From: a virus
Taxonomy: Duplodnaviria > Caudoviricetes
Length of the DNA: 64,000 nt
Reading direction: 5' to 3' (one strand)
IMG/VR virus record: IMGVR_UViG_3300014205_000183
Position 1 is the first letter of the stretch. The number at the start of each line of letters is the position of its first letter. Below are positions 38,287-63,348 of this stretch, one piece after another. Position numbers and translations under genes: made by a program. Below the pieces are notes generated by a model that was not told the DNA's origin, did not search any database, and saw only the letters and a list, made by a program, of their open reading frames with translations.

Positions 38287-38646
38287 TTAAAACTGGTATG
38301 TATAGCTCAAATTATTCCAAGTTTGGTCATTTGAACGATAGATATTGGCTTGTTCGGCCGCTTCTTCTGCTCTTTTTTTAGCCAACCAGACTTTCAAGGA
38401 ACCTAAAAGGTTGGATAGCTCAAAGTCTCCGAATATAGATGCCAGAGGTGTGGCCACAGTTAAGATGCTTTCTATGGTATCAAATATACCGCTACCAAAG
38501 CCACCAGTAACTGCACGACCAGCCTCTGCGCGTCTAGCCAGTGCTACCCCTAGCTCAAGATGAGCTTTAACCTCTTCACGGGTAGGATTGGCGGTTGCTG
38601 CCAGTGCCTTAGTGCGTAAAGCTGCGGTTTTGAGTAACTGGCGCAT
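38287..38646 (-). CDS. Hypothetical protein (LKTAA motif near the N-terminus)
   Basis: 119 aa, AAGGA RBS. Confidence 0.65.
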   Translation of the reverse strand: MRQLLKTAALRTKALAATANPTREEVKAHLELGVALARRAEAGRAVTGGFGSGIFDTIESILTVATPLASIFGDFELSNLLGSLKVWLAKKRAEEAAEQANIYRSNDQTWNNLSYTYQF

Positions 38647-38648
38647 AC

Positions 38649-38768: not shown

Positions 38769-38781
38769 AACATCCTCCTGA

Positions 38782-39039
38782 TTAAGTGAGACTTAAAGAT
38801 TCTTTATCTATATGTTCATCTAGCACTTGATAACCATCTATCTGAGCCAGAATGAACACGCGCAATGCCATTTTATTCAAGTCTGCCATATAAACCCGAT
38901 CGCCGCGGACCTCCAACGGTAACGCCTTACGATCTGAGGCATCTCCCTTCTTATCGATATATCTCAATTCAATAGGGTTGCCGTTTATAATGCACTGATT
39001 CAAGTCAGACAGCAGGTCTCCGGTAGGTTCCCAATCCAT
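38782..39039 (-). CDS. Stand-alone WYL-domain protein
   Basis: IELRYIDKKG..SDRKALPLEV..VYMADL...LRVFILAQI matches the WYL pattern. No HTH. Confidence 0.75.
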   Translation of the reverse strand: MDWEPTGDLLSDLNQCIINGNPIELRYIDKKGDASDRKALPLEVRGDRVYMADLNKMALRVFILAQIDGYQVLDEHIDKESLSLT

Positions 39040-39041
39040 AA

Positions 39042-39347
39042 TCACCAGTCCTTTTTAGGTTTATAGTTTATGGCTTCCAGAAGTTCACATCGCTTCACCA
39101 GCTTACCGTCTTGTTGAATACGGCCGCGTGGGTGCGCCATGGCCTGCTGAAGTGCCTCTTGTATCTTAAGCTCATCCTCTATCGACAACACTACATGGTC
39201 AGTACATACCTTAACATCGCTATCTAACAAGGTAGAATGCAAGTACGGGCCATCGGTAACTTCAAATGGTTTACCACAGACCGGGCACTCAATCAAATCA
39301 ATTTGGCGACACTTCACAGGATCGCCTGTATAGATTATGGTTGGCAT
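39042..39347 (-). CDS. Small Zn-ribbon protein
   Basis: Start MPTIIY at 39347. CPVC...CTDH motif. Confidence 0.6.
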   Translation of the reverse strand: MPTIIYTGDPVKCRQIDLIECPVCGKPFEVTDGPYLHSTLLDSDVKVCTDHVVLSIEDELKIQEALQQAMAHPRGRIQQDGKLVKRCELLEAINYKPKKDW

Positions 39348-39348: not shown

Positions 39349-40824
39349 TTATGAATTAATATTTTTAAATTCATCCACCAATTCATCACGCAAGGCATTG
39401 ATTGAACCGATGAATGTGTAAACCAAAAGCCCTTTTTCTTTTGGAAGTAAAGAGACAAGTTCCCTGATATTGCTTTCAAGTTGATTTACATTTGCTAAAA
39501 TTTCATCCGCCTTTTCACGTGCAGTATTTGCGGTAATTTTCTTTGTAGCCATGGTGCCATCCATAAAACTTGTTATCGGTTTATCACTTATTTCGTATGC
39601 TAATATATTATCACTTTTTAACTTAGCAGCTGCATAAGATATTTTGCCTTTTGTTTTTTGAAAGCTCTTAAAAAAGTCTGTCACAAATGCAGTTGAATTA
39701 GCTATTGTAAAATCCGCAATTTTCTTCGCAGACATGGTGCTACCCATAGAACTTGTTATTTGTTTTTTAATAATCTTCATAATCTCCGGCAAGGCAGCAT
39801 CAAAACCGCCAATTGCATTCTCACTGGAAGTTTGTAATAACTCTTTGAAAACCTTCTTAACCGCAGCCTCATCTCTGACTGGCTCATTATGAATCACAGT
39901 ATCAATAAGCTCTTGGTAAGAAACACCATCTATTAGATAGTCGTCTGCATTCCAAGGCATGATGGCTGCTTTTTTAGTTGCACCGGGATCAGCCAACAAA
40001 GGCATTACCGATACTTCAAGAAGAGACTGAAGCTCTGCTGCGGTATCTTTAAGAGGACTGAACAGCCCTTTAATTGTCTTCCACAAATCAGACAACCAAC
40101 TACCAATATCAGCTTGAATCTTTTTAGACTCTACTTTCTTCGGTAACTCTTCCTTAACCTGCTTACGTATAGTTTTAGCAGGTTCCCAACTTACGAGCTT
40201 ACGTTTAATTTCTTTCTTGGCAGTCTCAGTTTGTTTTACAGCCTGGTCAACTAAATCGGTAACACTCTTCACCAGCTCAGGTGCCAGCAGCTTATTCATT
40301 GCCTGGGTAAGTATTTCCAATCGTTCCTTATCGGAAACGGTGGTTGCTTTCACTTCATCGTAGATGGCATATACCCTCTGCTCATACTCCAACAGTATCT
40401 TCTTACTCTCCCCATAAGACTCAGAAACCTCCAGCAGCTCTCGCTGGATCTCGGCAGCAGCTCGCTCGCTCAAACCCTTTAGCTGTGTCTTGGATTCTTC
40501 GTACCCTTTTTCCGCTTTAAGAGCATTTATCTTTGCATCAGTTTCAGTGCGTAAATGGGTGAAGTCTTCATCCAATTTTTTAATCTTGTCTGTGGTTGTA
40601 GCTAATTGCTCCGCAATAGGCTTCATTCTGCGTAGGTCTCCCGCAGGCTTTAACGAGTACTGCTCAAGAGGTAAATCCTTTGGTTTGGTCTTATACTCTT
40701 GATAAGGAAGTAAAGGAGCGTCTTCCGTTACAGTAGTTTTAGGCGTGTTAGATATGGATTCTCCACTGTCAACAGCAATCGTGGTAAGCAGTGCTTTTTT
40801 AATTATTTGAATATCAGTGAGCAT
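39349..40824 (-). CDS. Modular head-region protein (coiled coil plus small domains)
   Basis: 491 aa. Segments are separated by KKIQAD, KKAA, KKIAD, KKITA. Confidence 0.7.
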   Translation of the reverse strand: MLTDIQIIKKALLTTIAVDSGESISNTPKTTVTEDAPLLPYQEYKTKPKDLPLEQYSLKPAGDLRRMKPIAEQLATTTDKIKKLDEDFTHLRTETDAKINALKAEKGYEESKTQLKGLSERAAAEIQRELLEVSESYGESKKILLEYEQRVYAIYDEVKATTVSDKERLEILTQAMNKLLAPELVKSVTDLVDQAVKQTETAKKEIKRKLVSWEPAKTIRKQVKEELPKKVESKKIQADIGSWLSDLWKTIKGLFSPLKDTAAELQSLLEVSVMPLLADPGATKKAAIMPWNADDYLIDGVSYQELIDTVIHNEPVRDEAAVKKVFKELLQTSSENAIGGFDAALPEIMKIIKKQITSSMGSTMSAKKIADFTIANSTAFVTDFFKSFQKTKGKISYAAAKLKSDNILAYEISDKPITSFMDGTMATKKITANTAREKADEILANVNQLESNIRELVSLLPKEKGLLVYTFIGSINALRDELVDEFKNINS

Positions 40825-40839: not shown

Positions 40840-42771
40840 TTATTTACTCTCAAGAGAATGTGGGGCGATATTGCCATGATCACTCATGTGCCAAACACCA
40901 GGCCAGAACTGCTGAGACTCCATGCGGGCAAGGATGAAATCCTCGGCATCATCCATCGAATTAAATTCACCTAAGAATCTGCCACCAACTTCGGATACGG
41001 AAGTCTTACTTCCCAGGGAACCACTATCAGATATCATGTAGTCGCCGTCAACAGGTTCTTCTAGGAGGTCGTCTTCGATCTCAGGGTCATCCTCATATTC
41101 ATCGGCAGCGCGTTTCTTTTTTGCTGCATTCTTCCCCGCAGCCAATTTATCTGCCTTGGACATGGCTTCCTCAAGTGTAGCAGCGTGTCCCACAACTTCA
41201 GAAGCAGCATCTTCTATGTCAAACTTATCCGCAAACCCCTCTGGAAGAGGATCGATACGGTAGTTGGTTCGAGAGTTTAATAAGGTGCCGTCATCTTCTT
41301 CTAACCAATCTGAATTAGCGGCTTTGGCAAGTGCCTTCTTGCTGCCCTGCTTATCAGTAAGGTAGTCTGGGTCTTCTTCCAAGATACCTGAATGAAACTT
41401 TATATAATATTTACCATCAGTTGATTTTGCGCCATCACGAGAATCTTTAAACATTACATCAGGATAGTCAGATCCGTCCACATATGGCTCGATTACTTTA
41501 TCTGTCTTAGCATCTACAAGAGCCAGGCCGTAGCCCTGACCTTCCCAGTCAGCAATCAAATCAAATATTGATATAGGTTTTGCGGAAGTTGTTTTCTTAT
41601 TGGCGTATGTGCCTAGCAGTTGCTCTTTAAGCCATTCCCGCATGTCGTCGGCAGTGCTGAATGATTCTAGTTCAACACCATCCAAGTCTGTTACAAAGAA
41701 AGCCTCGGGGTCATCTTCAAATTTAGTATGGTGGAATAAAACATAATCCCCAAGCAGTAAACCCGTCTCGTCTTCCATCATCGCAAAGAGATCGCCATGA
41801 CCATCAAAAATATCGTCAATCATGCGTTCGGTATTAGCTGCTTGTTTTTTAGTCAACTTACCCGACTTTTTAACAGGTGCGAGACCATCTGCCAGACTCA
41901 TTGCACCATCCAGTGTATTGGCATGACCTATAAGTCCTTCCTCGTCATTCTTAATTTGAAAACGAGAGTTCCAAGGGGCATCATCATCTTCCTCAATCTT
42001 GAAATGCGTGCGAGTGTTCACCATCAAGTCAGCAGCTTCTGGCACCCATTCTGATACCAATGCAGTCACCTGCTTACCAGCTGTCTTACTCTTCGGCATA
42101 TTCTGTGTTACTTCATCCTGTGGAGTGACAATCTGCTTTGGTTTAATAGCCTCGCTGATATTGTCATTAAATGTAATAAGGATACCATCGGCTTCAACCT
42201 CTTTAGCAAGGTCTTGAAGAAGTTCCAGATCTTCCTGACGAACCAGGATATCAACACATACTCGGTCAGGGTCAATAGTATAACGGCGGACTTCCCGATA
42301 ACGAATATCAGCCTCAGCCAATACCGCAAGTACGCTGGTGTAGCTTTCGTTAGTCTGACCAGCTTTTGTTTCTATGGTTAAACGGTAGCCATAACCATCA
42401 TAGATAGTCGCCATCTTAGCAGCATTGCGTTTAAAGTCCTTACCGGAGAACTGGTCGTCACCAGTTCCCAGCCACTGGTAAACAGCATCAGATAGCTGCT
42501 TATTGGGTAGCTGCGCCACATGCAGTGCGGATTGCGGTTTGGTGAAGTCGTTACTCCAGGACATATACACATGAGTACTGTCAATAGGTTTGATGTAATA
42601 AGTGTCACCATCCATAGTAAATTCTTTTACTTCAGTAGGTGTGTTCTTATCAGACCTCTTCTCAAAGAAACCCTGTTGAAGTCTGGCCAACGCCGTAGGA
42701 GCTGATGCTGCTGCCAGAGTTCTTAAGTTTTCTGTTTCAAATTCACTGCCGGGGGTTCGCATACCACGCAT
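40840..42771 (-). CDS. Modular acidic head-region polyprotein
   Basis: 643 aa. Acidic domains are separated by KRNAA, KTAG, KKQAA, KAAN, KKRAA. One domain occurs twice. Confidence 0.75.
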   Translation of the reverse strand: MRGMRTPGSEFETENLRTLAAASAPTALARLQQGFFEKRSDKNTPTEVKEFTMDGDTYYIKPIDSTHVYMSWSNDFTKPQSALHVAQLPNKQLSDAVYQWLGTGDDQFSGKDFKRNAAKMATIYDGYGYRLTIETKAGQTNESYTSVLAVLAEADIRYREVRRYTIDPDRVCVDILVRQEDLELLQDLAKEVEADGILITFNDNISEAIKPKQIVTPQDEVTQNMPKSKTAGKQVTALVSEWVPEAADLMVNTRTHFKIEEDDDAPWNSRFQIKNDEEGLIGHANTLDGAMSLADGLAPVKKSGKLTKKQAANTERMIDDIFDGHGDLFAMMEDETGLLLGDYVLFHHTKFEDDPEAFFVTDLDGVELESFSTADDMREWLKEQLLGTYANKKTTSAKPISIFDLIADWEGQGYGLALVDAKTDKVIEPYVDGSDYPDVMFKDSRDGAKSTDGKYYIKFHSGILEEDPDYLTDKQGSKKALAKAANSDWLEEDDGTLLNSRTNYRIDPLPEGFADKFDIEDAASEVVGHAATLEEAMSKADKLAAGKNAAKKKRAADEYEDDPEIEDDLLEEPVDGDYMISDSGSLGSKTSVSEVGGRFLGEFNSMDDAEDFILARMESQQFWPGVWHMSDHGNIAPHSLESK

Positions 42772-42970: not shown

Positions 42971-45877
42971 TTAACCTTTGTGCACTTTCTTGATTTTAGT
43001 ACCTTGATCACATGCTTCCAATTTCCAATTACGACCGCCGTGAATATCAAAATCGTAGTTGCCGAGTCGAGCGGCTTTCTTAGCTAAACGTCTACGAGTA
43101 GCTATGATTGTATCATCTTCCTTTTCACCTTCGACCATCATGCCGTTAGTGAGATCGGTAGCTGCAATTTTCTGAGCCAGCCGAGAAGCTGTTGTATTAG
43201 GTGCTCCTTGTAAATCAACAATAAGTTTTTCCAGAATCTTTTCCCGGATTTCTAAATACGTTTTTTCAGGATACCAGTTATCAAACGCAATTCTAGGATT
43301 TACAGAAGAGTCCCCATCATCGCCAAGACCGATCTTCCAATCTTCGAAATTGTAGAATATCCAACTATCTGATATGTCAGCTGGACCTTCTTGCCCTCCA
43401 GCAACACTTTCATCAGCCTCTGGGAATGTCAAATCCACATAACCAGAAATATGCTCCGCATCCTTCCAATTATTTGTTTGTATTGATATGTCATTCACGG
43501 TCATACCTGAAAACTCGCCAGCGATATCTTCGTCAGATTTATAGGGTCCGGTAGTCCCAACAGCCAATGCCCGGAGCTTAGCAGCTAATCGAGAAGACCG
43601 ACGCTTGATATCAACGACACTGTCGTCAATAATAGGGTCACCTTCAGTAACACCATTGGCGGCCAAGGCTTCTGTTATTTTTTTCTGTACTGCGGAGGTA
43701 GATTGCGAATATTTGCGTTTATTCACATGCATAACTCCGGCAGTATCTCTTAATGCCATGATGGTGGCATAATGCATCAATGCCCAACTCCCATCAGGCT
43801 GCTTCGAGATCTTTAGATTGGGTGTACCCCAGGTAGGTAGCTTATCTTTCGGAAAACTATCAGTCACAAAAAGGTTGATAACATCATCGTTAGTAGCTGC
43901 CTGTTTATCAAGACCGCTGAGTTTTTTAGCCAGCCGTGCAGCCTGTGTATCCAAATTACCAAGTTTCATATCCAACTCCCTTTCAGTTATTTGAGATTCT
44001 CCAACATCTGCTGCCTCTGGTTGTGTATTTAACATTTCATTATGTCCGCGAACAAATACACTAAACTTCCCTCCATTACCACTATATTTATTAAGTGGAC
44101 GGCCGTCAAAATCAGTAAAGCCTAGCTCAGTGAGTTTATTCTGCAATTCGGGTGTCCAACTCATAACCGGATTTTGAAGCCGCCAGGTTCCGCGCATACT
44201 GCCGTCCGCAATATATTTCACCCGGGCGTCTACCCCATTACTTAATAAAAACTCCTGCATCTTCTGATTCTCAGGTCTACGTTTAGCGGTGACAATGGCA
44301 GCGAGACGCTCGACACCCGTACTTTTAATGAGGTCACCAAAAATAGCAGAATACTTAGAACTGAAGATGGCAATATTGTCGGCGCGTCCGGCCTTTTCAG
44401 ATTCAGCTGGGTGACCGTCTTCGAGTGTCTTGATGTTGCCATCAGCCGCTGGAGTATTCGGGGCACTGGTCAAGCCCTTAGTAGGTGTGCGATCAACAGG
44501 CACAGTATTATTGTCTAGGGTGCCAAGTTCCGCGGCTGTTTTCTTTGTTGTCTTAACAAACTTACCTGCGCTAGTATACAAGGCGTCAAACTCTTTGAAA
44601 GACAACCTCACGAGTGATCCGAGCTTAGTGACCCGCAGTAAGGCACTTGGGCAACCCGCTTCTATATTCAAGGAAGTATATTTAGTAAGTTTCTTGTCAC
44701 CATCGATTTTACTGATAGACTCTTCATAGCGAACACCATAAGCCTGTGTCGGTTCGGCCTTGTCCAGATCCATATCCGCGGTAGGCCGCTTCTCCAAGAT
44801 GTACACTTTCTTTTCGAGGTCTACATCTTTAATGGTAATCATGTCTAATTCAGGAGCCTGCTTGGCATCTACCGGGACCAAGATGTCGCCTAAGCGATAT
44901 TTGGTTTCAAAATCATTAGGATGTCCGGCTGTTTTCTTTGCAGCTTCGACGCCAGGCTCTTGAGTATTGAAGTCACTCAACAAACTCCAGGCTGTGTCAC
45001 GCAAGCTATCACCAAAGCTCTCCAGGTATAGTCCGTGACTGCTGACACCCTTAGATTCCATAAAAGTCTCAACTTCGGTGTCATCTTCTGGAGATACACC
45101 ATGACCCTGGGAAACCAAAGCTAGATCAGACCAGACAGCCGGAAATTCCTTAACCAATTCTGCCACGGTGAGCTTGCCTTCCCACTTTTCATCAATGGCC
45201 GCGATAAGCTCCTGCCCTACTTTTTTTATTTCTTCATCAGGCATCTTGATGCCTGCGTCAGTTAACATGCTGGGAATGTACTCTGTAAGCTCCTGTTGTG
45301 ATGCGTTGTATCCTAGCTTCTCATTAACGCCTGCTAAATCAGACTCTTCACCCTCCTCATATGCACTCTCAAGCACAGAACCAACAGCATCTACAAATAG
45401 GATTTGACCCATATCATACGCGGTATCGCCAGTATCAGCGGCAGTCTTAACTGAGCTGTCTTTTTTAGATTCAAATTTACCACCCATGTTCTGGTAAACG
45501 GTATTCACGGTTGCCCATTCTTTATCTCCAAAGTCGGCCTTGGCTTTGCCGCTGCTCTTGGCCACGGCTTCCTCTGCCTTTTTCCACTTAGATTCATCAA
45601 CTTTACCCGGGGCATAAGTTTCAAATGCTGCCTTTTTTGGTTTTTTCTTTTTAGACTTATATGCCCAGGCATTATGCGCCGTGAGCTTATCTTTAGCAGC
45701 CAAGAAGCGTGCTTGCTTTTCTGTGAAGCCGTCTACCGCAGCTACAATTTGATCAAAATCAGCATACAGGCGTTTACCGCTTGTTAGCTTAATATTAGCC
45801 TTGGTTCCAACAACGGACAGTACACGCCCCTGTTGACCGTTCCACATCGTGACAAGTTGATTATGTTTAACTTCCAT
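42971..45877 (-). CDS. Modular head-region polyprotein
   Basis: 968 aa. Domains are separated by KKAA, VKTAA, KKTAG, KKTAA, DKQAA. SH3-like N-terminus. Confidence 0.75.
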   Translation of the reverse strand: MEVKHNQLVTMWNGQQGRVLSVVGTKANIKLTSGKRLYADFDQIVAAVDGFTEKQARFLAAKDKLTAHNAWAYKSKKKKPKKAAFETYAPGKVDESKWKKAEEAVAKSSGKAKADFGDKEWATVNTVYQNMGGKFESKKDSSVKTAADTGDTAYDMGQILFVDAVGSVLESAYEEGEESDLAGVNEKLGYNASQQELTEYIPSMLTDAGIKMPDEEIKKVGQELIAAIDEKWEGKLTVAELVKEFPAVWSDLALVSQGHGVSPEDDTEVETFMESKGVSSHGLYLESFGDSLRDTAWSLLSDFNTQEPGVEAAKKTAGHPNDFETKYRLGDILVPVDAKQAPELDMITIKDVDLEKKVYILEKRPTADMDLDKAEPTQAYGVRYEESISKIDGDKKLTKYTSLNIEAGCPSALLRVTKLGSLVRLSFKEFDALYTSAGKFVKTTKKTAAELGTLDNNTVPVDRTPTKGLTSAPNTPAADGNIKTLEDGHPAESEKAGRADNIAIFSSKYSAIFGDLIKSTGVERLAAIVTAKRRPENQKMQEFLLSNGVDARVKYIADGSMRGTWRLQNPVMSWTPELQNKLTELGFTDFDGRPLNKYSGNGGKFSVFVRGHNEMLNTQPEAADVGESQITERELDMKLGNLDTQAARLAKKLSGLDKQAATNDDVINLFVTDSFPKDKLPTWGTPNLKISKQPDGSWALMHYATIMALRDTAGVMHVNKRKYSQSTSAVQKKITEALAANGVTEGDPIIDDSVVDIKRRSSRLAAKLRALAVGTTGPYKSDEDIAGEFSGMTVNDISIQTNNWKDAEHISGYVDLTFPEADESVAGGQEGPADISDSWIFYNFEDWKIGLGDDGDSSVNPRIAFDNWYPEKTYLEIREKILEKLIVDLQGAPNTTASRLAQKIAATDLTNGMMVEGEKEDDTIIATRRRLAKKAARLGNYDFDIHGGRNWKLEACDQGTKIKKVHKG

Positions 45878-45912: not shown

Positions 45913-47055
45913 TTACTTCTTATCTGTTGTTCCAAAGTCAAAATTCTTTAATTCATCCGCTAATTCCAAATCATTAGTAGCCCCACTGTCAATTCCACGT
46001 CTAGCCATCTCTTGCCGGAGAATAGGATTGATACGATGTTGCGGGTTGCGCAACAGCTCACTGCTCTGCTTACGACTACCTAATCTGTATTTTTTAATAG
46101 AATTAAGAGTGGTATTTAGGTAGCTACCTAATTTTTCTTTAGACCCGGACCACATCAAACGAGAACCTTTATGCACGGTAGACATACCAGTGGCTTCAAT
46201 AGCAGGTATATAAGTGCCCCCACCTAGTTGAGCAATTCGAGCTGTTAAGCCAGATGCCTTCTGCATAATGGATTCATCTTCATTTTTAGCAGATACGACG
46301 CTGCGAGCGAATGACCGGCGCTCTAAAGAAGCAGCTGTGGCTTCACCTGGAGCCTCTGCGGGAGTGGCTGCTTCACCTGCGGGTGCCGCGGCAGCATCAG
46401 GGCCTCCTGCAAGATTACCTTCGTCTACAATCTCTTCTTCGCCTGCCCCATCCATCAGGGCACCGCCACCCATATCACCACCAATATCGCCCCCGTCAGA
46501 GGGTTCAGCACCGGGTGCAAATGCAGGCTCACCTTCTGGTTCTGGCGGAGTCGCGTCTTCTTGTGCAGCGGCCTCGGCCTGTCCTTCCATCACGGTCTGC
46601 TCTATATTAGTATAGCTGTCCACAAGTAGGTCAAATCCTGACTCATATTGCGATTTAATCAAATCCACCTTATTTTCATCGAAGTCATCCGGTGCAGACC
46701 AGCCATTTTCGGTATCGTAAACATTGGTCACGAGTGCCTCTGATTCAGATATAGCCTTGTCACCCATAAACACTTTAAACTGCATTGTCAGCTGGCCATC
46801 CTTATTGGCCTCTTCTTTAACTAGAGAGAACTTACGCCCATCACGCTCCTCTTCCCGAAGCACCTCTGCCGCAGCACGGCGAACAAGTCCTGCCCGTCTC
46901 AACATATCATAAGGAACATCGTAACTTTCACCATTGTCTAAGGTAACAGCTGCATGAAGAGAACCTGTGCGAATAACGGTGCCTTTGCCAAGCAAATCAT
47001 CGCCATCAACCACCTCCACTACTTGCCCCGGATTATACTCTTCATAAGGTTTCAT
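45913..47055 (-). CDS. Head-region protein with an SH3-like N-terminus and an acidic Ala/Gly/Pro linker
   Basis: 380 aa, GGAG RBS. Confidence 0.7.
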   Translation of the reverse strand: MKPYEEYNPGQVVEVVDGDDLLGKGTVIRTGSLHAAVTLDNGESYDVPYDMLRRAGLVRRAAAEVLREEERDGRKFSLVKEEANKDGQLTMQFKVFMGDKAISESEALVTNVYDTENGWSAPDDFDENKVDLIKSQYESGFDLLVDSYTNIEQTVMEGQAEAAAQEDATPPEPEGEPAFAPGAEPSDGGDIGGDMGGGALMDGAGEEEIVDEGNLAGGPDAAAAPAGEAATPAEAPGEATAASLERRSFARSVVSAKNEDESIMQKASGLTARIAQLGGGTYIPAIEATGMSTVHKGSRLMWSGSKEKLGSYLNTTLNSIKKYRLGSRKQSSELLRNPQHRINPILRQEMARRGIDSGATNDLELADELKNFDFGTTDKK

Positions 47056-47056: not shown

Positions 47057-47500
47057 TTATAACTCCCAATGTAAATTTGAGACCTGTGTGTTTATTTCTG
47101 TACGGATGTTATTCAGGTCTGTTGCGAATTGTTTTACTGCATCTAAATATTGTTCCGACATCCGAGCACCCTCAAGCAACACGTCGGACAAGGAAACTAA
47201 TGCCTCCAGTGGTTCATTCTGTCCCTCTGGATGAGCGTCCTGGATTCCCTGTGCCGCAGTCTTTAATGATTCAGCATAAGTTCGCAGGGTGTGCAGATAG
47301 TTGCCAACTAAGTCAACCTTAGATAAAAACTGCATACCTGATACCCTGTCTTCCAGGGTATTCTGAAGAAGTATGGCTAAGTCTTCAACCATATCTTTAC
47401 GCTCTTTAGCGGCCTGCTTACCCGCACCTTTAGATGTATGACCTATAATCGGGTCATGTGACTTGGTAGGGTCGAATTTAGGTGCTTGCTTAGTTGCCAC
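47057..47500 (-). CDS. Hypothetical helical protein downstream of the portal
   Basis: GTG start at 47500 preceded by GGAGG, overlapping the portal stop. Confidence 0.6.
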   Translation of the reverse strand: MATKQAPKFDPTKSHDPIIGHTSKGAGKQAAKERKDMVEDLAILLQNTLEDRVSGMQFLSKVDLVGNYLHTLRTYAESLKTAAQGIQDAHPEGQNEPLEALVSLSDVLLEGARMSEQYLDAVKQFATDLNNIRTEINTQVSNLHWEL

Positions 47501-55481: not shown

Positions 55482-56405
55482 TTACTCTTGTGTTGTAAAT
55501 AAATTTGTTTGACCTTGTTCTTCTCGATACTGACGATCAGCTGCATAAATACTATCCATAAAATCGTCAGAAGGTAAAGAGTCAGAGTTGTTCAGCAGCA
55601 TGCCGTATTCAACTAAAAGGGAAAGCTCTTTTGCTGCTTGAGCAGTATCAGCTTTTGAATCACCTGTGGCTTCATACCCCAAAAGTATATACCCTTGGTC
55701 TTCAGACGGTGTGCCTGTTAAGGTAAGCAAAAAGGTATCAAAAGCATCTGAAGAATAAAGTACCCAGTCTTTATTGTCCATAGCGCCGTAACCACGGCCA
55801 ATACGTATCAACATTCCCTCATTGGTCTCAATATATTCTAAACCATCATTACCTTGGAATTCGCCACTCTGGTAAGGACCCACACCACCCGTGCCCAAGT
55901 AATCTCCCAGTTCAATACCAGCCGCCACAAGTGCTGCTTCTGTTTCTTCTTGCGAAAACTCATCATTCTCTTCCCGTAGTTGTGCATTAAGCTGTGTAAG
56001 CCAATCTGGAGATGATGGCTCTCCGCATAACAGTGTTAAAAGATTGTAGGTGTCAAACGAATTGTAAGCACTTACACTTGCGGGTTCTACAACACCATCT
56101 TGTGCACGGAATTCAACACTGGTACTATCTGGCTCATATGACCCTAGACCCGGTTTATAGTCGCTACTGAAACGACCAGAACCATCTTCAAAATCAATAT
56201 GCCCATCCAGGTCATCTATAGCGGCGACGGAATCTCCACCCCACAACGCCTTAACAACCGCTAGACCGTCAATAACTGTTTTAGCAACAGTCATGTCTGC
56301 TTCAGATAGAGCAGCTGTACGGCTCATGAACATACCTTCTCTAAGCGGCGCTGCCGCAGCAAGATAAGCTGCTCGGCTGGATATAATCTTATCATGTGTT
56401 TTCAT
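55482..56405 (-). CDS. Acidic protein with a basic N-terminal leader ending SRTAA
   Basis: Start MKTHDK at 56405 (GAGG RBS). Confidence 0.7.
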   Translation of the reverse strand: MKTHDKIISSRAAYLAAAAPLREGMFMSRTAALSEADMTVAKTVIDGLAVVKALWGGDSVAAIDDLDGHIDFEDGSGRFSSDYKPGLGSYEPDSTSVEFRAQDGVVEPASVSAYNSFDTYNLLTLLCGEPSSPDWLTQLNAQLREENDEFSQEETEAALVAAGIELGDYLGTGGVGPYQSGEFQGNDGLEYIETNEGMLIRIGRGYGAMDNKDWVLYSSDAFDTFLLTLTGTPSEDQGYILLGYEATGDSKADTAQAAKELSLLVEYGMLLNNSDSLPSDDFMDSIYAADRQYREEQGQTNLFTTQE

Positions 56406-56422
56406 GCAATTCCTCAATTTAA

Positions 56423-56677
56423 TTAATAGTGTTGATTCGGTACTGCCTTCGGCTGAACACATAGCGCGGCTTTAATTACCCTAATAGCTGACTTAGCTTC
56501 AAGATTCTCATTCATAGCGTTCCACAAGATGCCGACTATTTTCAGCATGACATCCGGTGCCGCACCTATCGGGAGGTGTTCTGCAAGATAAGGTGTTTCC
56601 CGCAAAAACGTCCCCACCAGTTCTTGTAATTCAGATGACACTTGATTTTTATCAAGATCTGATTTGCGAGTCTGCAT
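56423..56677 (-). CDS. Hypothetical protein
   Basis: 84 aa, translationally coupled to the upstream stop, with AAGGAG before the start. Confidence 0.6.
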   Translation of the reverse strand: MQTRKSDLDKNQVSSELQELVGTFLRETPYLAEHLPIGAAPDVMLKIVGILWNAMNENLEAKSAIRVIKAALCVQPKAVPNQHY

Positions 56678-59600
56678 TACCTAGCTCCTTTTTTCTTAGA
56701 AGCCTGTGCTGCGCCAGAAACTACGTCAAAGAATTCTGGGCTGTATTGCTCATCACGCTCGTCGCCGTCTTCGTCCTTAAATGTAATGATATATATCAGT
56801 TCACTGCCGTTATAGCTATGGTCGGATATCTCACCTTCTTTACCAATATCCTGGTTTCCCCATCCAAAATCAGATTGCGCATTAGGCTTTACTTTTGTAC
56901 CATTGGCTAAGACTTTGTAGGGACGCAGGGTTCTGAATTCACCCATAGGAGCGTCATGGTGACTGATTTTGACTTCGATAACACCACCAGGGAATTCCCG
57001 AGCGTCAAAAGAAAAATCCTGAGTACCCGGGAACATCTTGAAGAAATCATCGGAACCTTCGATCTTCATGACGGCATCGCCGGACCGCTGCTGCCAGCCC
57101 ATAGCCCGTCCTTCAACTTCCCAAAGACCTTCATTTTCGAATTGCTCATTAAGGCGAGAAAAAGCCTCATCAAGATCGATCTTCGTGTCATCAAGAGCTA
57201 TTTGGTATGCATCAATGTCATCTTCGGCCAACTCTTTGGCCTTGGCTTCAATGTCCTCGTCTGACGCCCCGGCTTCCATGTCATACTGTTCCGGGTCTTC
57301 TTTTATCAGTTCCTGAAAAAATTCGACTTGGCTCGTATATACGTCGGAATCACTGTATGAGGCAAGGAACTGGCCCTGGTCTTCAGCCGCCTGTTTCTTC
57401 TTACTTTTTAGCGGGCGTTTGGTGCTGACGGCCGTGCGATGACCATTCTTCGACGCAACCATGCTTGGCGCACCCGCGAAGGTACCCAAAATCATAGCAA
57501 CTGAATCGATAGTCGCGGCATCTGCACCTTGCAGCTCCGCTTCAACAGTACCATATACATCCTGCTCAATTCCCTCATCACCTGCAAGCATAGCCAAGAG
57601 GCCCGCGGCTGAATCAGCGGCCGTGGGGTCGTTACCGTACCGGCTATCCCGCATTAGGATATTCAAAATCCGACCATATAAGGCATCTTTTGAATTAGCA
57701 CGTTTATTGGCGGAACCCGCACGTGCTACCGTTGGCCGAAGTGACCTCCGGGTTGCTTGCTTACGGGAAGTCTTGGCGGCTTCTTTATTTGTGGTGTCCT
57801 CACCAAAAGCCTCTAAGACAAAGTTGTAATTGGTTGGTGCACCATGATTCTCAGCAAAAGTACCCCAATTGCCCTGACTGATAGCATCTATGGCACCTTC
57901 AGCAAGATCAACTGCTCGTGCAGCTTTCAATGCTTGTTCCCGCGAATCAACCTGTAAACCAAATTCGGCTAGACCCTCTTCATTACTGAAGTTAATCACT
58001 GTACCAAATTTACCAAATGTCTTAACAGCAACATCCTCTGTCATATCAGGGGATGCCTCTAGCAGAATAATGCCAAGAGTGTACGGTGCAGCAGCAGTCT
58101 TCTTGGAGGCCTCAACACCAACAATCGGAACATAGCTATCGGGGTTAGCCGCACGGTCTGCTTTCAGCATATCCACTATGCCCTTGATTGATTTCTCACC
58201 TCGCAAGGTATTCATGCGAGGCTTACCATTCATCAAAATGTTTGCTTTCTCTTCTTCTGGCAAATCACTGTGAATGATGGCCGACACACCCATGATTGAT
58301 TTATTCCCATTCGTGGTTGGTAGCTTATTTTGCCCACCCATGATATCAGCGAGGATACCAGCAGTCTTCTTACTGGACTCAACTTTCACCCCTGCGGTGT
58401 CCACGTCAAGTATTTGCGCAACGGCCATAGCGTCATCCCGCATAGCCAAGAATCCCTCTCTACCTTCGGGTGTAGATGTATCCCACGTACCATCCATACC
58501 CTCGGTACAAGAATTTTTAAGGCCATTGATTAAACTTAAAGCGGTCTCATCAGTTTCAGCAAATTTCTCAATGCCTTCTAATAAGGTATACATATCTAAA
58601 AAACCATCTCGACCTGCATCTGAAGAAGTATCCCACTCGCCTGTGTAACCCTCAACACAGGAGTTGATGAAGGCTACTAAGTCAGACTTGAGGTCAGATG
58701 TTCCCTCCGCAGCAGTTTTCACCGCTTTGCGCGTCTTTAAACCCGCGTCTGTCTGAAAATCAGGTTCATCTCCTTCGGTGGAGTCATCAGAATCCCAACC
58801 GTAAAACAATTCATAAGAGCCATCATTTTCATTATGTCCAAAATAAAAGCTACCATTATCATAAGGTGCAGCAACTTTCTCGCTGCGGTTCAGCTGGTCT
58901 GCCAGTTTGTTCGCAACACTATCAATAGTATCCCATGAAAGTTCGTCCCCGATAATCAAGTCTTCATCTTCCGTTCCTAATGCGGAAGGAGACTTAGCAG
59001 TGCTGCCCGCAGCCTTAAGTTCGGCAACCAACTCATCAAAAATACCAAAAAACTTGGCTACCTGGACTGGCTGGTAAATGCCATTAGCACCACTAGATAT
59101 GGTATCAACTATAATTTCATAACGACCCGGTTCCCGCTCCAGGTCAGATAAGTTGTAAGACTTTATCTGCTTGAGTGTCTCTTCGCCTAAACCTGGTTTG
59201 TACATTTTAGAAATATCAACATCGTAAGCAGCTTTCACAGCCTTAGAGCTGCGGGTTTTGCTTTGGCCGCCTTTGGGTTTAAAACCGGCGGAGCTGATGG
59301 CGTTGATAAGTTCGGAAGCATCTACATCTTCGCCTTTTACCGTGATCTCACCACCAAGTTCAGGATTACGTTCGCCAATCAGTATATAATGACTGGTTTC
59401 AGAACCTTTCTCATATATGAATGTAGTTGGTGCAACATCCTCATCTTTTGGTAAATCAGATTTCTTCGGATTTTGAATCTCTTCTGTAGACCCATCTGCC
59501 AAAGTCAACACCAAAGTGCATTCCTCAAACACATGATCTGCTGGGAGTTGAAAATAATCTCCAGGAGTGGCGGAGAGAGTATCGCCGTCGGGAGAGATTA

Positions 59601-62600
59601 ACTTAACTCGGCGATATTTCTTGGTCTCCGGTTTGTCTGTTCGGGTTCCGCTGGTGAACACCTCGTCAATCCAGAATTTGTCAACACCAGGGACATTCAG
59701 GTACACCCCTTGATATTTGTCAAATTCCTTGTGTGTCGCGCCGGTGAATCCGGCGTCGGTCAGTTGTTCAACAACTTTGTCGTACATCTCAATATCATAA
59801 TCCTGATCGGCTTCGCCCGTGGCTTTCACATCTTTACCAGCCTTGATTATGCGACGGTCAAACTTGGCTTTTAAAGCCCGGAGTTTAGAGCCATGTTTAT
59901 TAGGATCACGTTCGCCCGGAGCATGAAACATATCAAGCTGCCCCTGGTCTTCACGAACTTGGTGCATGTCAACGCCTGCATCTTCTGGACTACCGATGGC
60001 GCCATCGTTGCTCTTTACGTCCTCAATAAAGCTATCGCGCTCAAGTCCCTGGGGAACCATGAACGCCAGGTTAGAAAAAATACCGGCCAAACTGTCAGCC
60101 GTGCCGTTAAGGCGGCCTTCGTTGCTGTAGTATGGAATATCGCTATCCTGCTCAGCCCAGAAGCCAAAGCTACTACCGTCATCGAAATTCACGGTAAACG
60201 TGATGCTGCCACTGATAAGTTCCATAAAGGACTGACCAAATCTATCAAAGGCCGCATCTTCCGACTCATTGTTATCCTGGTTAAAGAAATAAGTAAGACC
60301 ATAGTTACCACGGACATCGCCACCCTGGTGAACCAGCGCATAACCGTACCACAGTTCATCGTTGCCCTGACAAACACCAAATTGACAAGTAGGTCCAAGG
60401 TACGACCAGTTATAAGTGTTTTCGCTCTTGCCCCTGATTTCTGGCCAGCCGTTACTGGCCACCAGATTGAGTTTCTTGGCCTTGGCCGAACCTTCTTTAA
60501 AGTCCGCTTGCTGGGCAATCATGTTCTCAAACTCTTTTTTAGCCTCTTCCCAGTTGTCCAGGTCAAGGGTTATTCCGGCTTCACTGAGAGTCATAATCTG
60601 GGATGTGCTTTCCACGTGCTCGGCCCAGGTTCCAAGGTCTTCGCCATCGGCCTTTACTTTCTTGGAACTATGTACATATTTACTATCCAAGTTGGCCAGG
60701 AACTCATCAACCTTAGATTCCAGTGTTGCCATGTCGTTAAATGCAAACTCTTCTTCCTTGATAATATTCTCACCGGATTCATGGTGGTATCCAAAGTCTG
60801 TATTCACGGCGTATCGCATGTACAGTGAGTGTGTGTCTGGATTATCACTGTGACCATTGCCCGGAGCATAATACTGAGCTTTTATGATGAACATAACAGT
60901 ATCTTCGCCGTCGCCGCGCTCCATCTCTGACAACTCTTCTGCTTCAGAGGAGTACCCCGCGTTATACAACTCATTGTAGTAAATGTTCTCTACCCCTAGT
61001 TTTTCTACAAGCTCAGGATATTTTTTAATAAATTCTTCCTTAGCATATGTGTAGTTTGACTCCTGGGCTGCGTCAATATCCTTCTGTGCTTCCACATTAG
61101 GAACAGTTGTTCCTGACCCTGTAAGATATTCTACAGTAGTAAAACCATCAACCTGCACACCACCATCTGTAAACGGAATAAAACCATCACGACTTGCGTG
61201 CTCTATTTCTTTAGTCTCGACCTCACCAGCGTTAGTAAGTTCATAGTCGTCCGCGATCGTGTTGAATGCATCAAGCAGTTTCTCATCCAGCATATCCTTG
61301 ATGGCATCATAAGAAACATCACTATCACCGGTATCGTCAGCGGTTTCAGAATCATCAGCCGCTTTGACAGCCTTTGACCCTGTCTTGACTTCATCGTTGC
61401 CAGAAGTAAAGATGGTCTCACCTTTCTCGAGCAACTCTTCCATGGCGTTGCTTACTGCGTAGTTCGGATACCACCAAACCTTACCCTCGGAGGAGATATT
61501 TCCTTCATCATCCGGCAGCATATCATATCCAATAATAGGAGCGGAAGTCAGGGCACCAATGTCCTCCGGTTGTACCATACCCCAAGAACTGTTAGCAAAA
61601 ATGTCTTCAAGTAAATCGGGCATGATATAATTCTCATCCTTGCTTTTTTCAAGCATGGCCGGAAGTTCTTCACGACCAAGGTCTGTAACCTTTATGGAGA
61701 GATCACCGTTAGGTAGTTCTGTAAGAGATGCGTATGTACCTTCTTCAGATAATGCAGCAGTTTTCTTAGAAGCACTAACTTCATTTTTCTGGTCTGCATC
61801 AGCACCGATGGGTGTCTGTCCAGCAAGCGGGAGAATCTCAGCTGTTTTCGCAGCGGCTGTCTTATTATTATCGCAGGCCTCAACAACAGCATTAACAGTA
61901 GCTTCATCAGCATTCTGTAATAAAGACCCAACTAAATCAGTCAGCTCCTGTTCCCCATCCCATTCCTCAAGAGCGTATCCGATTTCAGCAGCTATATTGC
62001 CGCTAGTGCCTTGATCTTTGTAATAGGAATCCTTATTAAGGATAGTCTTGATGGTGTCAACAACGGGCAGCTGCGAGGCGGTTTTCTTATCTGTATCAAC
62101 TTCCGCATCTGCATCTTTAACCATATCAGAGGCTGTAACACCTCTCAGTAGATTGTTTACATCACGGTCTGCATGAACGGCACTGCCGACGCGCTGCTTA
62201 GCGGCTTTGTGACGGAACATGTCATCCTCAGCCAGACTACCGAGGTGTGCCTGAAGGCCTTCGGCGGACATGGGGAACTTCTGACCTGTGCTGATGATGA
62301 ATTCTTTTCCAATATCAATTGACCCGTTAACGAGTGTTAACGGAATAGTGATGTTGCTTGTACGTTTGTAGCTTGGGCTAGCAACTCGACAATTCCACTC
62401 CACAGAACCTGCTGTAGCCTGTCCCTCGCCATCAATTGCACTAACAGTAACCTTGTTAAGACTGGAGCGGTCCAAATAAGCAGCACCTTTCACTGTCTTC
62501 ATAAAATCACTGATAACACCTGCGGAGGCGTTCAAAATACTGTCATAGTTTGCAAGGTTTCCCAGTACAGGAGCCTGGTCTTTAACGACGCCAACCGGGT

Positions 62601-63348
62601 TGTAGCTCGGAATATCAGTTGGCTGGTAAAGTAGCTCGTCTGGTTCATGGAAGTCATCTTCAGTTGCTATGGATTCACGATCAATGGCAAATTGCATACG
62701 TTCAACATCATCTGATGAATATACTGTGCCATCTTTTGCTTTAAGTGTGCCGTTTGGGTAGGCTTCATCAACAATGATACTTACTACTTCATGCGAGAGC
62801 GGACAGATACCATGCAGAACTTGACCTTTAGCAAACTCCTGTGGCTCGTACATCTGCGGTTCAACGAAAGATGGACTGAGTTCCATAATCTCATTATTCA
62901 TGGGGATGAGCATCATGTAATCACCACCATACATATTCTGAGGCATAGCATATCGCACGCCTGCCGCCATTTTTTCAACATCCATAGAAGCCACACCTAC
63001 TAAACCAGCGGCAACCACATCCTTGGTTCCCGTAATAGTATGCACCACTTTATCCGTGTTATCCTTGGAAGCCCTTATTTCAAGTTTGAAATGCTGACCG
63101 AGTTTCTCATGGATAGCTGCTCGTACTTCTGCACCAGAGCTGGGGAATTGATGTAGATTAAGACCATCAACAGCTGCTTCAACTTCTTGGAGGTTGTGTG
63201 CTATCTTTCTGGTTGATCCACATTTGACTTCAAATTTACCAGATTTAACAGCCCACACCTGTAAACCATTATCGTTATAAAGTTCAGTGTATGCAGCGGA
63301 TGCCCGGCGAATATTTTCGGCCTGGACTTTAAGTACGGACTTTGCCAT
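56677..63348 (-). CDS. Giant modular head-region polyprotein (about 2220 aa)
   Basis: Start MAKSVLK at 63348 (AAGGAG). At least ten acidic domains are separated by KKTAS, KTAAAKTAE, KKTAA, KAVKAA, KKVKAD, DVKAT, KAVKAA, VKTAA, KKTAG, KKTAA, KKQAA. Confidence 0.8.
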   Translation of the reverse strand: MAKSVLKVQAENIRRASAAYTELYNDNGLQVWAVKSGKFEVKCGSTRKIAHNLQEVEAAVDGLNLHQFPSSGAEVRAAIHEKLGQHFKLEIRASKDNTDKVVHTITGTKDVVAAGLVGVASMDVEKMAAGVRYAMPQNMYGGDYMMLIPMNNEIMELSPSFVEPQMYEPQEFAKGQVLHGICPLSHEVVSIIVDEAYPNGTLKAKDGTVYSSDDVERMQFAIDRESIATEDDFHEPDELLYQPTDIPSYNPVGVVKDQAPVLGNLANYDSILNASAGVISDFMKTVKGAAYLDRSSLNKVTVSAIDGEGQATAGSVEWNCRVASPSYKRTSNITIPLTLVNGSIDIGKEFIISTGQKFPMSAEGLQAHLGSLAEDDMFRHKAAKQRVGSAVHADRDVNNLLRGVTASDMVKDADAEVDTDKKTASQLPVVDTIKTILNKDSYYKDQGTSGNIAAEIGYALEEWDGEQELTDLVGSLLQNADEATVNAVVEACDNNKTAAAKTAEILPLAGQTPIGADADQKNEVSASKKTAALSEEGTYASLTELPNGDLSIKVTDLGREELPAMLEKSKDENYIMPDLLEDIFANSSWGMVQPEDIGALTSAPIIGYDMLPDDEGNISSEGKVWWYPNYAVSNAMEELLEKGETIFTSGNDEVKTGSKAVKAADDSETADDTGDSDVSYDAIKDMLDEKLLDAFNTIADDYELTNAGEVETKEIEHASRDGFIPFTDGGVQVDGFTTVEYLTGSGTTVPNVEAQKDIDAAQESNYTYAKEEFIKKYPELVEKLGVENIYYNELYNAGYSSEAEELSEMERGDGEDTVMFIIKAQYYAPGNGHSDNPDTHSLYMRYAVNTDFGYHHESGENIIKEEEFAFNDMATLESKVDEFLANLDSKYVHSSKKVKADGEDLGTWAEHVESTSQIMTLSEAGITLDLDNWEEAKKEFENMIAQQADFKEGSAKAKKLNLVASNGWPEIRGKSENTYNWSYLGPTCQFGVCQGNDELWYGYALVHQGGDVRGNYGLTYFFNQDNNESEDAAFDRFGQSFMELISGSITFTVNFDDGSSFGFWAEQDSDIPYYSNEGRLNGTADSLAGIFSNLAFMVPQGLERDSFIEDVKSNDGAIGSPEDAGVDMHQVREDQGQLDMFHAPGERDPNKHGSKLRALKAKFDRRIIKAGKDVKATGEADQDYDIEMYDKVVEQLTDAGFTGATHKEFDKYQGVYLNVPGVDKFWIDEVFTSGTRTDKPETKKYRRVKLISPDGDTLSATPGDYFQLPADHVFEECTLVLTLADGSTEEIQNPKKSDLPKDEDVAPTTFIYEKGSETSHYILIGERNPELGGEITVKGEDVDASELINAISSAGFKPKGGQSKTRSSKAVKAAYDVDISKMYKPGLGEETLKQIKSYNLSDLEREPGRYEIIVDTISSGANGIYQPVQVAKFFGIFDELVAELKAAGSTAKSPSALGTEDEDLIIGDELSWDTIDSVANKLADQLNRSEKVAAPYDNGSFYFGHNENDGSYELFYGWDSDDSTEGDEPDFQTDAGLKTRKAVKTAAEGTSDLKSDLVAFINSCVEGYTGEWDTSSDAGRDGFLDMYTLLEGIEKFAETDETALSLINGLKNSCTEGMDGTWDTSTPEGREGFLAMRDDAMAVAQILDVDTAGVKVESSKKTAGILADIMGGQNKLPTTNGNKSIMGVSAIIHSDLPEEEKANILMNGKPRMNTLRGEKSIKGIVDMLKADRAANPDSYVPIVGVEASKKTAAAPYTLGIILLEASPDMTEDVAVKTFGKFGTVINFSNEEGLAEFGLQVDSREQALKAARAVDLAEGAIDAISQGNWGTFAENHGAPTNYNFVLEAFGEDTTNKEAAKTSRKQATRRSLRPTVARAGSANKRANSKDALYGRILNILMRDSRYGNDPTAADSAAGLLAMLAGDEGIEQDVYGTVEAELQGADAATIDSVAMILGTFAGAPSMVASKNGHRTAVSTKRPLKSKKKQAAEDQGQFLASYSDSDVYTSQVEFFQELIKEDPEQYDMEAGASDEDIEAKAKELAEDDIDAYQIALDDTKIDLDEAFSRLNEQFENEGLWEVEGRAMGWQQRSGDAVMKIEGSDDFFKMFPGTQDFSFDAREFPGGVIEVKISHHDAPMGEFRTLRPYKVLANGTKVKPNAQSDFGWGNQDIGKEGEISDHSYNGSELIYIITFKDEDGDERDEQYSPEFFDVVSGAAQASKKKGAR

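Follow-up and report, generated by a model that had tools for sequence, protein, structure and literature searches.

A K-T-A motif probably marks prohead protease cleavage sites in modular head polyproteins of a large myophage related to phage G

Assemblin of herpesviruses (MEROPS S21), which has the fold of the gp21 superfamily, cleaves itself on both sides of its catalytic domain and also cuts the scaffold, in both cases at (V/L/I)-x-A/S, i.e. between A and S. In bacteriophages, T4 gp21 and the proteases of phiKZ and SPN3US each use a single short motif for processing the scaffold, the protease itself and the internal head or ejection proteins (PMC10052503, PMC9026906). In T4, N-terminal leaders are removed and the internal proteins include enzymes which are delivered together with the DNA (PMC9026906); in phiKZ and SPN3US, nearly all known cuts remove N-terminal propeptides, and SPN3US gp53, with at least three cleavage sites, is one of several multi-cut substrates (PMC10052503). 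Polyvalent proteins, giant chains of several modules whose genes adjoin those of the portal and virion proteins, have been proposed to travel with the DNA and to release their domains by means of embedded peptidase domains (Iyer et al. 2017, PMC5512222). Here, we analysed 64 kb from the start of one 132-kb contig of an uncultured tailed phage (IMG/VR record IMGVR_UViG_3300014205_000183; Duplodnaviria, Caudoviricetes), referred to below as the window, in which about 25 kb around the portal gene (38287-63348) encode long open reading frames (ORFs) bearing a short Lys-Thr-Ala (K-T-A) motif. This feature is real and highly non-random, and from the sequence it is best read as a set of head polyproteins punctuated by sites for the prohead protease.

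The core of the motif is K-T-A-[AGS], with V-K-A as a variant, and is sharper than the pattern [KRV].A[AGSD] put forward in the initial annotation of the window. In the head module (34539-63375; 9,369 aa), the strict form K-T-A-[AGS] occurs 19 times compared with 1.1 +/- 1.0 in 100 shuffles (z 17.5; shuffle maximum 5), and it is found only once in the tail half (11,237 aa) and once in the rest of the contig (20,038 aa), i.e. twice in 31,275 aa. The looser pattern is also enriched in the head module (109 vs 52.5 expected; z 8.3) and stands at expectation elsewhere (50 vs 47 in the tail half, 69 vs 67 in the rest of the contig). An unbiased k-mer ranking of the cargo ORFs placed KTA, KKTA (8 vs 0.22), KTAA, KTAG and SKKTA (4 vs 0.02) at the top. 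The bearers of the strict motif are nine cargo ORFs, the protease and a scaffold candidate, and it is nearly absent elsewhere. Moreover, the first 85 residues include a [KR]-x-A-[AGS] match in 10 out of 15 head-module proteins vs 5 of 107 others (Fisher 5e-8), a placement which matches the arrangement expected of removable leaders.

The initial annotation had singled out six long ORFs flanking the portal gene, and all six were found with the lengths given there (491, 643, 968, 695, 886 and 2223/2232 aa). They are acidic overall, as had been stated, with net charges between -2 and -180. In the giant ORF, strict sites are located at residues 431, 505, 538, 1553, 1670 and 1759, V-K-A type sites near 671, 908, 1186 and 1381, and K-Q-A-A at 1994; these numbers count from TTG 63375 and decrease by 9 when the ATG at 63348 is taken as the start, which is backed by the 2223-aa representative P0058. 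The Lys codons of the ten sites listed initially begin at 62085, 61863, 61764, 61365, 60654, 59235, 58719, 58368, 58101 and 57396, and those of the 886-aa ORF at 54939, 54588, 54114, 53850 and 53574, and the peptides reported for these 15 positions (ten in the giant ORF, five in the 886-aa ORF) are all present.

The presence of the motif in the protease and the scaffold candidate was likewise as claimed (residues 30-33 and 297-300 of the former, 440-443 of the latter). From its N-terminus, the 441-aa protease comprises a peptide with K-Q-A-A at 30-33, a core at about 40-275 containing His90, Ser205 and a Cys-rich insert, a disordered linker with K-K-K-T-A-A at 295-300, a beta-barrel at 358-415 and R-A-A-S at 435-438. 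His90 and Ser205, candidate catalytic residues of which the latter lies within T-D-S-S-M-G, are invariant in 20 homologues spanning 31-78% identity, and equivalents of both are present in Bacillus phage G gp19 and in gp94 of mycobacteriophage Catera. Of 14 close homologues, 12 keep the N-terminal site as K-x-A-[ASG], one has K-R-S-S and one K-R-A-T, and the counterpart in phage G gp19 is L-V-K-T-A-A. In an AlphaFold2 (AF2) model, the core was predicted with a local distance difference test score (pLDDT) of 75-94, and all three sites fell wholly or mostly into segments with pLDDT <50 around the core and the barrel. Among 48,161 PDB chains compared by VIA-align, the best match of the core was T4 gp21 (5jbl_A; Z 8.9, root-mean-square deviation 3.0, 141/165 residues); Foldseek against the PDB matched only the small C-terminal barrel of the model, the core being found by VIA-align alone. 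Together, the position of the gene between the portal and the scaffold and capsid genes and the motif copies flanking the core fit the class of proteases with the gp21/assemblin fold (MEROPS clan SH: S21, S77, S78, S80). The identical protease is also encoded on a recorded contig of 237 kb.

Since the same tag flanks the core of the phage's own capsid protease and occurs in the scaffold candidate, K-T-A is most likely the cutting site of the head protease. The scissile bond would most likely follow the Ala, because this residue is invariant while the next one varies. At orthologous sites, K-x-A-[AGS] is kept and the second position and the neighbouring residues vary.

The C-terminal barrel of the protease (36924-37097) is of the Tudor/KOW/SH3-like kind, with many PDB matches of Z 7-9, and is parted from the core by the disordered linker of about 80 residues that carries K-K-K-T-A-A; judging from the model, it may anchor the protease in the prohead. 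The 754-aa protein encoded next to the protease is a putative scaffold by position; it had no family match in PHROG or Pfam, and shows several K-[KR]-A-A matches besides K-K-K-T-A-A. It also contains a near-identical tandem duplication of about 57 aa rich in Thr, Ser, Pro, Asp and Lys (residues ~519-633; 34905-35249).

Comparison with homologues places the motif at the joints between modules. When 1.84 billion representatives were searched by profile-free HMMER with residues 401-1600 of the giant ORF, 1144 matches were obtained, 150 of which were listed. These form discrete blocks: the starts of high-scoring segment pairs cluster at ~540, 670-689 and 1170-1189, and their ends at ~660, 890-900 and 1350-1370. 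Alignment depth changes stepwise: it rises from 3 to 9 at 541 and again from 20 to 65-80 at 673-681, falls from 57 to 5 at 901-921, climbs from 12 to 54 at 1181 and drops from 46 to 9 at 1361-1383, with a further step at 1541-1555. The motif coincides with every one of these steps, i.e. S-K-K-T-A-A at 536-541, A-V-K-A-A at 669-673, K-V-K-A-D at 906-910, D-V-K-A-T near 1186, A-V-K-A-A at 1379-1383 and A-V-K-T-A-A at 1551-1556.

Four modules delimited in this way (A to D, Table 1) have stand-alone homologues among the matches listed, so that the search for separate homologues proposed initially was successful for four giant-ORF modules, with proteins of 121-252 aa. For module A, these are P0080, P0199, P0203 and P0207 (121-141 aa), and for module C P0083, P0104, P0126 and P0143 (186-208 aa). 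Module D stands alone in P0128 (205 aa) and makes up the C-terminal portion of both P0116 (1347 aa) and P0081 (347 aa). Module B is a widespread domain of unknown function to which about half of the 150 matches listed belong, and it is found alone in proteins of 213-252 aa (P0119, P0111, P0190, P0191, P0184 and P0196), as well as within giant proteins of up to 2273 aa. In the alignment, the stand-alone A and B proteins start a few residues past one linker and stop just short of the next, and the matched spans of the C and D homologues finish at linkers. The alignment-based AF2 model of residues 530-915 agrees with these borders, with pLDDT <50 at 530-541, 659-683 and 906-915 and mostly >90 in module B. 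Over both models, six of six motif sites lie in low-confidence linkers, as the initial annotation had anticipated for disordered joints. No convincing match was obtained for modules A and B by Foldseek against the PDB or by Atlas structure and feature searches, where a likeness to LPD34 (template modelling score 0.2-0.3) was too weak to count, and neither the stand-alone nor the giant homologues of modules A to D matched a Pfam family. The giant ORF itself had no match in Pfam or PHROG. With at least five independently occurring modules, it thus has the make-up (two to fifteen disparate domains per chain) and the portal context by which polyvalent proteins are recognized.

The other cargo ORFs show similar behaviour. 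Homologues of the 886-aa ORF, in which two small PHROGs of unknown function were matched, keep its N-terminal (17-169) and C-terminal (~750-886) modules and differ in the middle, and those with extra upstream modules have a K-x-A-A-G-[TS] junction immediately before the conserved N-terminal module. Site 315 of the 968-aa ORF aligns with K-K-V-A-A in one relative (L015) and K-K-A-S in another (L017), and the orthologue in the latter (1542 aa) has about 430 extra residues just upstream of this site. In addition, the 763-aa protein P0062 opens like the 643-aa ORF (the first five residues are identical by eye, unscored), and its C-terminus is module B lying between K-T-A sites, six of which are present, four as K-T-A-[AGS]. 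Since it combines a 643-aa-like start with module B, modules appear to move between cargo genes. Both the stand-alone homologues and the module insertions beside sites in relatives fit the earlier idea that domains are gained between linkers. The initial description of the six ORFs as strings of unrelated modules is borne out by the giant, 886-aa and 968-aa ORFs, but such an architecture was not seen in the 491-aa ORF. PHROG, Pfam and NCBIfam yielded nothing useful for the cargo ORFs except the two small PHROGs of the 886-aa ORF and a match at the start of the 695-aa ORF, residues 2-219 of which matched phrog_36119 (4e-43) and, weakly, Pfam NTP_transf_2 (5.5e-4, below the curated cut-off).

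Two of these ORFs have further peculiarities. At residues ~392-428 of the 695-aa ORF (51493-51603), about 20 aa with the ending G-K-[VT]-A-[TA] are repeated in tandem, and the strict K-T-A-A belongs to the second copy; from its sequence, this looks like a recent linker duplication. In the 968-aa ORF, the C-terminal ~35 residues (42971-43075), which follow K-K-A-A-R and read L-G-N-Y-D-F-D-I-H-G-G ... W-K-L-E, are near-invariant in three orthologues which are otherwise 22-27% identical. A leader sequence common to the head proteins was not found; there is only a weak likeness between the N-terminal ~60 residues of the giant (63200-63348) and 968-aa ORFs (45680-45877), which are 27% identical along 45 aa, at an E of 0.003 when ten sequences were compared. 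V-A-A-V-D-G closes both segments, and the N-terminus of the 968-aa ORF is conserved among its orthologues. The two N-termini could represent a shared capsid-targeting domain.

Judged by the matches of its portal, protease, major capsid protein (MCP) and tail sheath, which serve as anchors, the phage is a myophage and a distant relative of phage G and the cluster C mycobacteriophages. The genes of the head region are on the minus strand throughout, in the order portal ... protease, scaffold candidate, 140-aa ORF and MCP, the MCP gene being the downstream border of the motif-rich block. The MCP, which also has weaker matches to Bxz1-type mycobacteriophages, shows only a loose K-I-A-A at residue 49 that is not clearly kept in relatives. 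By sequence, the 25-kb stretch is best explained as the block for head morphogenesis in a large myophage belonging to the phage G / Bxz1 lineage; about ten ORFs around the portal gene would encode internal-head cargo proteins, several of them polyproteins.

Evidence in this direction is also given by the relatives. Among the tripeptides of the phage G head genes, KTA shows the strongest enrichment, with nine copies in gp4-gp21 vs 1.4 +/- 1.1 and none in gp24-gp65, and the residue after the Ala varies (A, S, N, E, T, L, K) with the Ala fixed. In mycobacteriophage Catera, [KR]-T-A-[AGS] occurs 12 times vs 0.8 expected in gp87, gp89, gp90, gp93 and gp94, and once in the other proteins of the locus. 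The homologous protease domain stands at the start of Catera gp94 and is followed by N-K-T-A-G.

In this 1369-aa protein (L019, 43341-47450), additional modules and a scaffold-like C-terminal region come after the protease domain, and [KR]-T-A-[AG] occurs between them; judged by this layout, the protease itself heads a polyprotein in Bxz1-type mycobacteriophages.

A different punctuation is found in other lineages. Out of 149 representatives sharing modules B or C, 54 have at least three [FYM]-A-[KDEN]-G-G motifs at the same module edges, and AKGG is found 217 times vs 4.4 expected over the whole set of 149, a single protein having up to 16 copies. At least three K-T-A-[AGS] sites are present in 6/149, and none of the best 12 proteins for either motif has both punctuations. 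The giant ORFs with [FYM]-A-[KDEN]-G-G (1294-2273 aa) occur in runs (L021:10001-25626, L020:2871-8090, P0094, P0106, P0127 and others), K-T-A sites are essentially absent from them, and neighbouring genes carry ART-PolyVal, Helicase_C and LPD1. It is tempting to speculate that [FYM]-A-[KDEN]-G-G may be a second, Gly-Gly-type processing code. The same modules thus carry different punctuation in different lineages, which would be expected if each motif matched the processing enzyme of its lineage. In the literature searched, neither a K-T-A or [KR]-x-A rule nor Gly-Gly-punctuated phage polyproteins are described.

Taken together, we consider it likely that the cargo ORFs encode internal-head polyproteins, in which modules of about 100-250 aa are joined by disordered Lys-rich [KR]-T/x-A-[AGS] linkers and are cut by the prohead protease after the Ala. 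The cargo proteins would co-assemble in the prohead with the scaffold and the serine protease of the gp21/assemblin fold, which would then cleave the motif, most probably behind its invariant Ala. Cutting would free the catalytic core of the protease itself, cleave the scaffold, trim N-terminal leaders from most head proteins and divide the polyproteins into roughly 35-40 pieces, and the folded pieces would probably remain in the capsid and exit with the DNA.

Several findings weigh against this reading. The proteins are strongly acidic vs the basic internal proteins of T4, and part of their mass is possibly a disposable core. The 491-aa ORF lacks a strict site, has a coiled-coil look and is Lys-rich. 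The fold score of the protease core (Z 8.9) is only moderate, and the protease matched no protease family in Pfam or NCBIfam at E <= 0.01 or 1. Hydropathy and bulky-residue content in flanks of +/-10 residues around the sites did not differ significantly from background (p 0.28 and 0.08), a window too coarse for linkers of 10-25 residues. Lastly, apart from the weak nucleotidyltransferase signal in the 695-aa ORF, the modules of the six ORFs belong to no recognizable family and have no recognizable function. The label 'effector' is therefore unsupported for these ORFs: of the overall interpretation given initially, the part that stands, indirectly, is that the motif behaves as a prohead-protease site, whereas no effector family was found in the six ORFs. 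Ejection and effector roles of the modules are thus something we infer, and the 'dozens of ejected effectors' proposed initially are hypothetical.

The main rival explanation concerns the fate of the fragments and is prompted by the strong acidity of the proteins. It accepts cutting by the prohead protease but takes the polyproteins as a disposable assembly core, i.e. an extended scaffold for a large capsid, the fragments of which are expelled before or during packaging, as with T4 gp22 and the HK97 delta domain, which are cut up and leave the capsid. A strong net negative charge, here -54 to -180, is also seen in scaffolds and T4 core propeptides, the genes lie among those for portal, protease and scaffold, and family searches found no enzymatic family in the six ORFs. 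Nevertheless, folded pieces of 100-250 aa, such as module B with its pLDDT mostly >90, which have many stand-alone and polyvalent-protein homologues in unrelated phages, are unexpected for a lineage-specific scaffold, and folded domains of 15-25 kDa are unlikely to pass through capsid pores. In addition, there is a separate scaffold candidate (34539-36803), and a neighbouring ART/NDT/Acb1 polyvalent protein has the same site at a domain joint. We therefore regard a disposable core as unlikely.

That the Lys-rich K-T-A linker is not cut at all and acts as a flexible spacer, a DNA-contact or a capsid-tethering element seems improbable. Although the linkers are short, basic and predicted to be disordered, which would also suit contact with DNA inside the capsid, this explanation accounts neither for the invariant Ala with a small next residue nor for the copy before the protease core, kept in 12/14 close homologues and phage G, and it leaves unexplained both the copies which most head proteins carry at 6-60 residues from their N-terminus and the near absence from the other 31,275 aa. 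Furthermore, other lineages use the non-basic [FYM]-A-[KDE]-G-G at the same module edges.

It is still less probable that the motif is cut by a protease other than that encoded at 36843-38168, i.e. by a host enzyme or another phage peptidase. Phage G does encode a zinc peptidase (gp2) near its head genes, but no further peptidase was recognized among the scanned ORFs of the window (the tail-half ORFs being outside the scan), and the motif brackets the core of the prohead protease and tracks its homologues in phage G, Catera, L015 and L017. Although the modules do move between ORFs and phages at the joints, a repeated oligonucleotide serving as a DNA-level recombination joint for module shuffling, with no role in the protein, was rejected as next to impossible, since the 19 sites differ in their Lys (AAA 10, AAG 9), Thr (four codons) and Ala (four codons) codons, have unrelated flanking codons and share no nucleotide word, and orthologous sites differ at the second residue. 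This synonymous variation therefore indicates selection at the protein level and not repeated DNA.

The gene of the neighbouring polyvalent protein has the head genes on one side and the tail genes on the other. Besides three ART-PolyVal domains, this protein contains an NDT-like domain (826-883) and a 2H/Acb1-like phosphoesterase domain (968-1063), and it carries K-T-A-A at 820-823, three residues ahead of the NDT-like domain, as well as K-Q-A-A at 411. On the basis of these sites, it may be a further substrate of the protease. K-S-A-T at 187 and 370 was not counted, since the latter lies within an ART-PolyVal match (229-379) and the former is its paralogous copy. The first 40 residues of the longest ORF of this gene look spurious, and its start is probably near 28950.

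The portal gene contains an intein-like insertion of ~370 aa (residues ~390-760; 48363-49475), which is missing from the 640-aa portal of a relative and resembles intein-bearing proteins in many unrelated phages, i.e. in terminase, thymidylate synthase and nucleotidyltransferase genes. With a weak LAGLIDADG_3 match at residues 617-685, it is probably a homing-endonuclease intein, and the portal used as a query over viral contigs mostly found matches to the intein and not to phage relatives. Between the cargo genes and the protease gene, an 87-aa WYL-domain protein is encoded (38782-39045; Pfam 1.3e-4), and WYL ORFs of 83-84 aa are located at the same place in two relatives (L015 and L017), an unexpected ligand-sensing or regulatory domain within a head module.

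Table 1. Features of the head region and neighbouring anchors in the window. Module and site numbers of the giant ORF count from TTG 63375.
Feature	Position	Strand	Remarks
Tail sheath	20964-22814	-	recognizable anchor
Polyvalent protein, 1109 aa	25741..28950	-	between head and tail genes; Pfam ART-PolyVal 4e-65, Nuc_deoxyri_tr2 4e-6, Acb1 4e-7
Major capsid protein, 310 aa	33024..33956	-	phrog_2522 8e-45; phage G gp27 36.5% identity
Putative scaffold, 754 aa, Lys/Ala-rich	34539..36803	-	between protease and MCP genes; K-K-K-T-A-A 438-443
Predicted prohead protease, 441 aa	36843..38168	-	phrog_18299 head maturation protease 4e-8 (residues 180-241); phage G gp19 40% local identity
119-aa protein	38287..38646	-	K-T-A-A at residues 6-9
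491-aa Lys-rich protein	39349..40824	-	loose matches only (K-K-A-A at 284); weakest member
643-aa candidate cargo protein	40840..42771	-	K-T-A-G at 229, K-Q-A-A at 309, K-R-A-A at 553
968-aa candidate cargo polyprotein	42971..45877	-	K-T-A-[AG] at residues 144, 315, 446
380-aa acidic protein	45913..47055	-	R-R-A-[AG] sites at residues 53-63
153-aa head-module protein	47057..47518	-	K-Q-A-A at 34, K-T-A-A at 86
Portal protein, 1050 aa	47490..50642	-	PHROG portal 2e-43; phage G gp14 30% identity, in two pieces around the insertion
695-aa protein	50689..52776	-	nucleotidyltransferase-like N-terminal domain; K-T-A-A at 424
886-aa candidate cargo polyprotein	52777..55437	-	sites at residues 19 (R-T-A-A), 167, 284, 442, 530, 622
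326-aa acidic head-module protein	55482..56462	-	R-T-A-A at residues 48-51
Giant candidate cargo polyprotein	56677..63348	-	2223 aa from ATG 63348; 2232 aa from TTG 63375; net charge -180
Module D, giant ORF residues ~1384-1533	58777..59226	-	between sites 1376-1383 and 1549-1556
Module C, giant ORF residues ~1180-1370	59266..59838	-	between Lys-rich linker ~1180-1187 and site 1376-1383
Module B, giant ORF residues ~680-898	60682..61338	-	between sites 667-673 and 905-910
Module A, giant ORF residues ~544-662	61390..61746	-	between sites 538-541 and 667-673

A broader proposal, which we offer tentatively and hold to be possible rather than probable, is that phage G, the Bxz1-type phages, the phage studied here and many uncultured relatives belong to one clade sharing a capsid protease with an assemblin-like rule, in which a basic residue, Thr or any residue and Ala precede the cut, and that this rule serves to dice capsid-loaded polyproteins into dozens of independent, delivered proteins. 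If true, this would give a new, sequence-readable cleavage rule for a clade of prohead proteases which includes those of the cultivable phages G and Bxz1/Catera, and the role of the head protease would grow from leader trimming to module release, linking polyvalent proteins with capsid maturation. Module edges marked for cleavage would explain how cargo is gained and swapped, and punctuated polyproteins would be a general gene organization of big phages, each lineage having its own punctuation (K-T-A in this one, [FYM]-A-[KDE]-G-G in others and x-x-E in phages of the T4 and phiKZ types). It would then be possible to read from sequence which proteins an uncultured phage injects, and this would also offer a way to list candidate capsid-delivered proteins, likely early host-takeover or anti-defence factors, in uncultured large phages.

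Of the known systems, T4 is similar in that its head module likewise contains the gene of a protease with this fold (5jbl_A) and one short motif recurs in the protease, the scaffold and the internal head proteins (in T4 gp23, gp22, IPI-III and Alt). In contrast, T4 cuts after Glu in L/I-x-E and not after an invariant Ala following a basic residue, each of its substrates receives one or two cuts close to an end, whereas up to about 12 sites per chain would separate modules here, and its internal proteins are small and basic, while the cargo proteins are giant and acidic. With phiKZ (gp175) and SPN3US (gp245), this phage shares the status of a large myophage with many head proteins bearing a common motif. 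In those phages, however, the motif is S/A/G-x-E and serves mostly for propeptide removal, unlike the separation of swappable modules predicted here. The large internal protein mass of those phages is ejected into the host, as would be the case here; PHROG searches found no sequence similarity of the cargo to phiKZ or SPN3US proteins. Herpesvirus assemblin resembles the predicted specificity in having Ala at P1 and a small residue at P1', and the V-K-A variant of the giant ORF resembles the herpes release-site pattern. The phage protease would likewise cut itself on either side of its catalytic domain as well as the scaffold. Yet the position before x-Ala is mostly Lys or Arg in the phage and not hydrophobic, assemblin and the phage protease have no detectable sequence similarity, and the herpes substrates are the protease and scaffold only, whereas the candidate substrates here include cargo polyproteins. 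As to polyvalent proteins, the disparate modules and the portal context are alike, the same contig carries a bona fide ART-PolyVal member, and relatives and module-sharing proteins adjoin LPD11, LPD1 and ART-PolyVal genes. Unlike the class of Iyer et al., the six ORFs matched no catalogued polyvalent-protein domain in Pfam, such as the LPDs, ART-PolyVal, MuF or ArdC, and no embedded peptidase family in Pfam, PHROG or NCBIfam; their joints carry the motif of a separate prohead protease instead. Compared with known head-protein processing, what would be new in this phage are the basic-x-Ala rule, to which that of assemblin comes closest, the many more cuts per chain and the parting of swappable modules.

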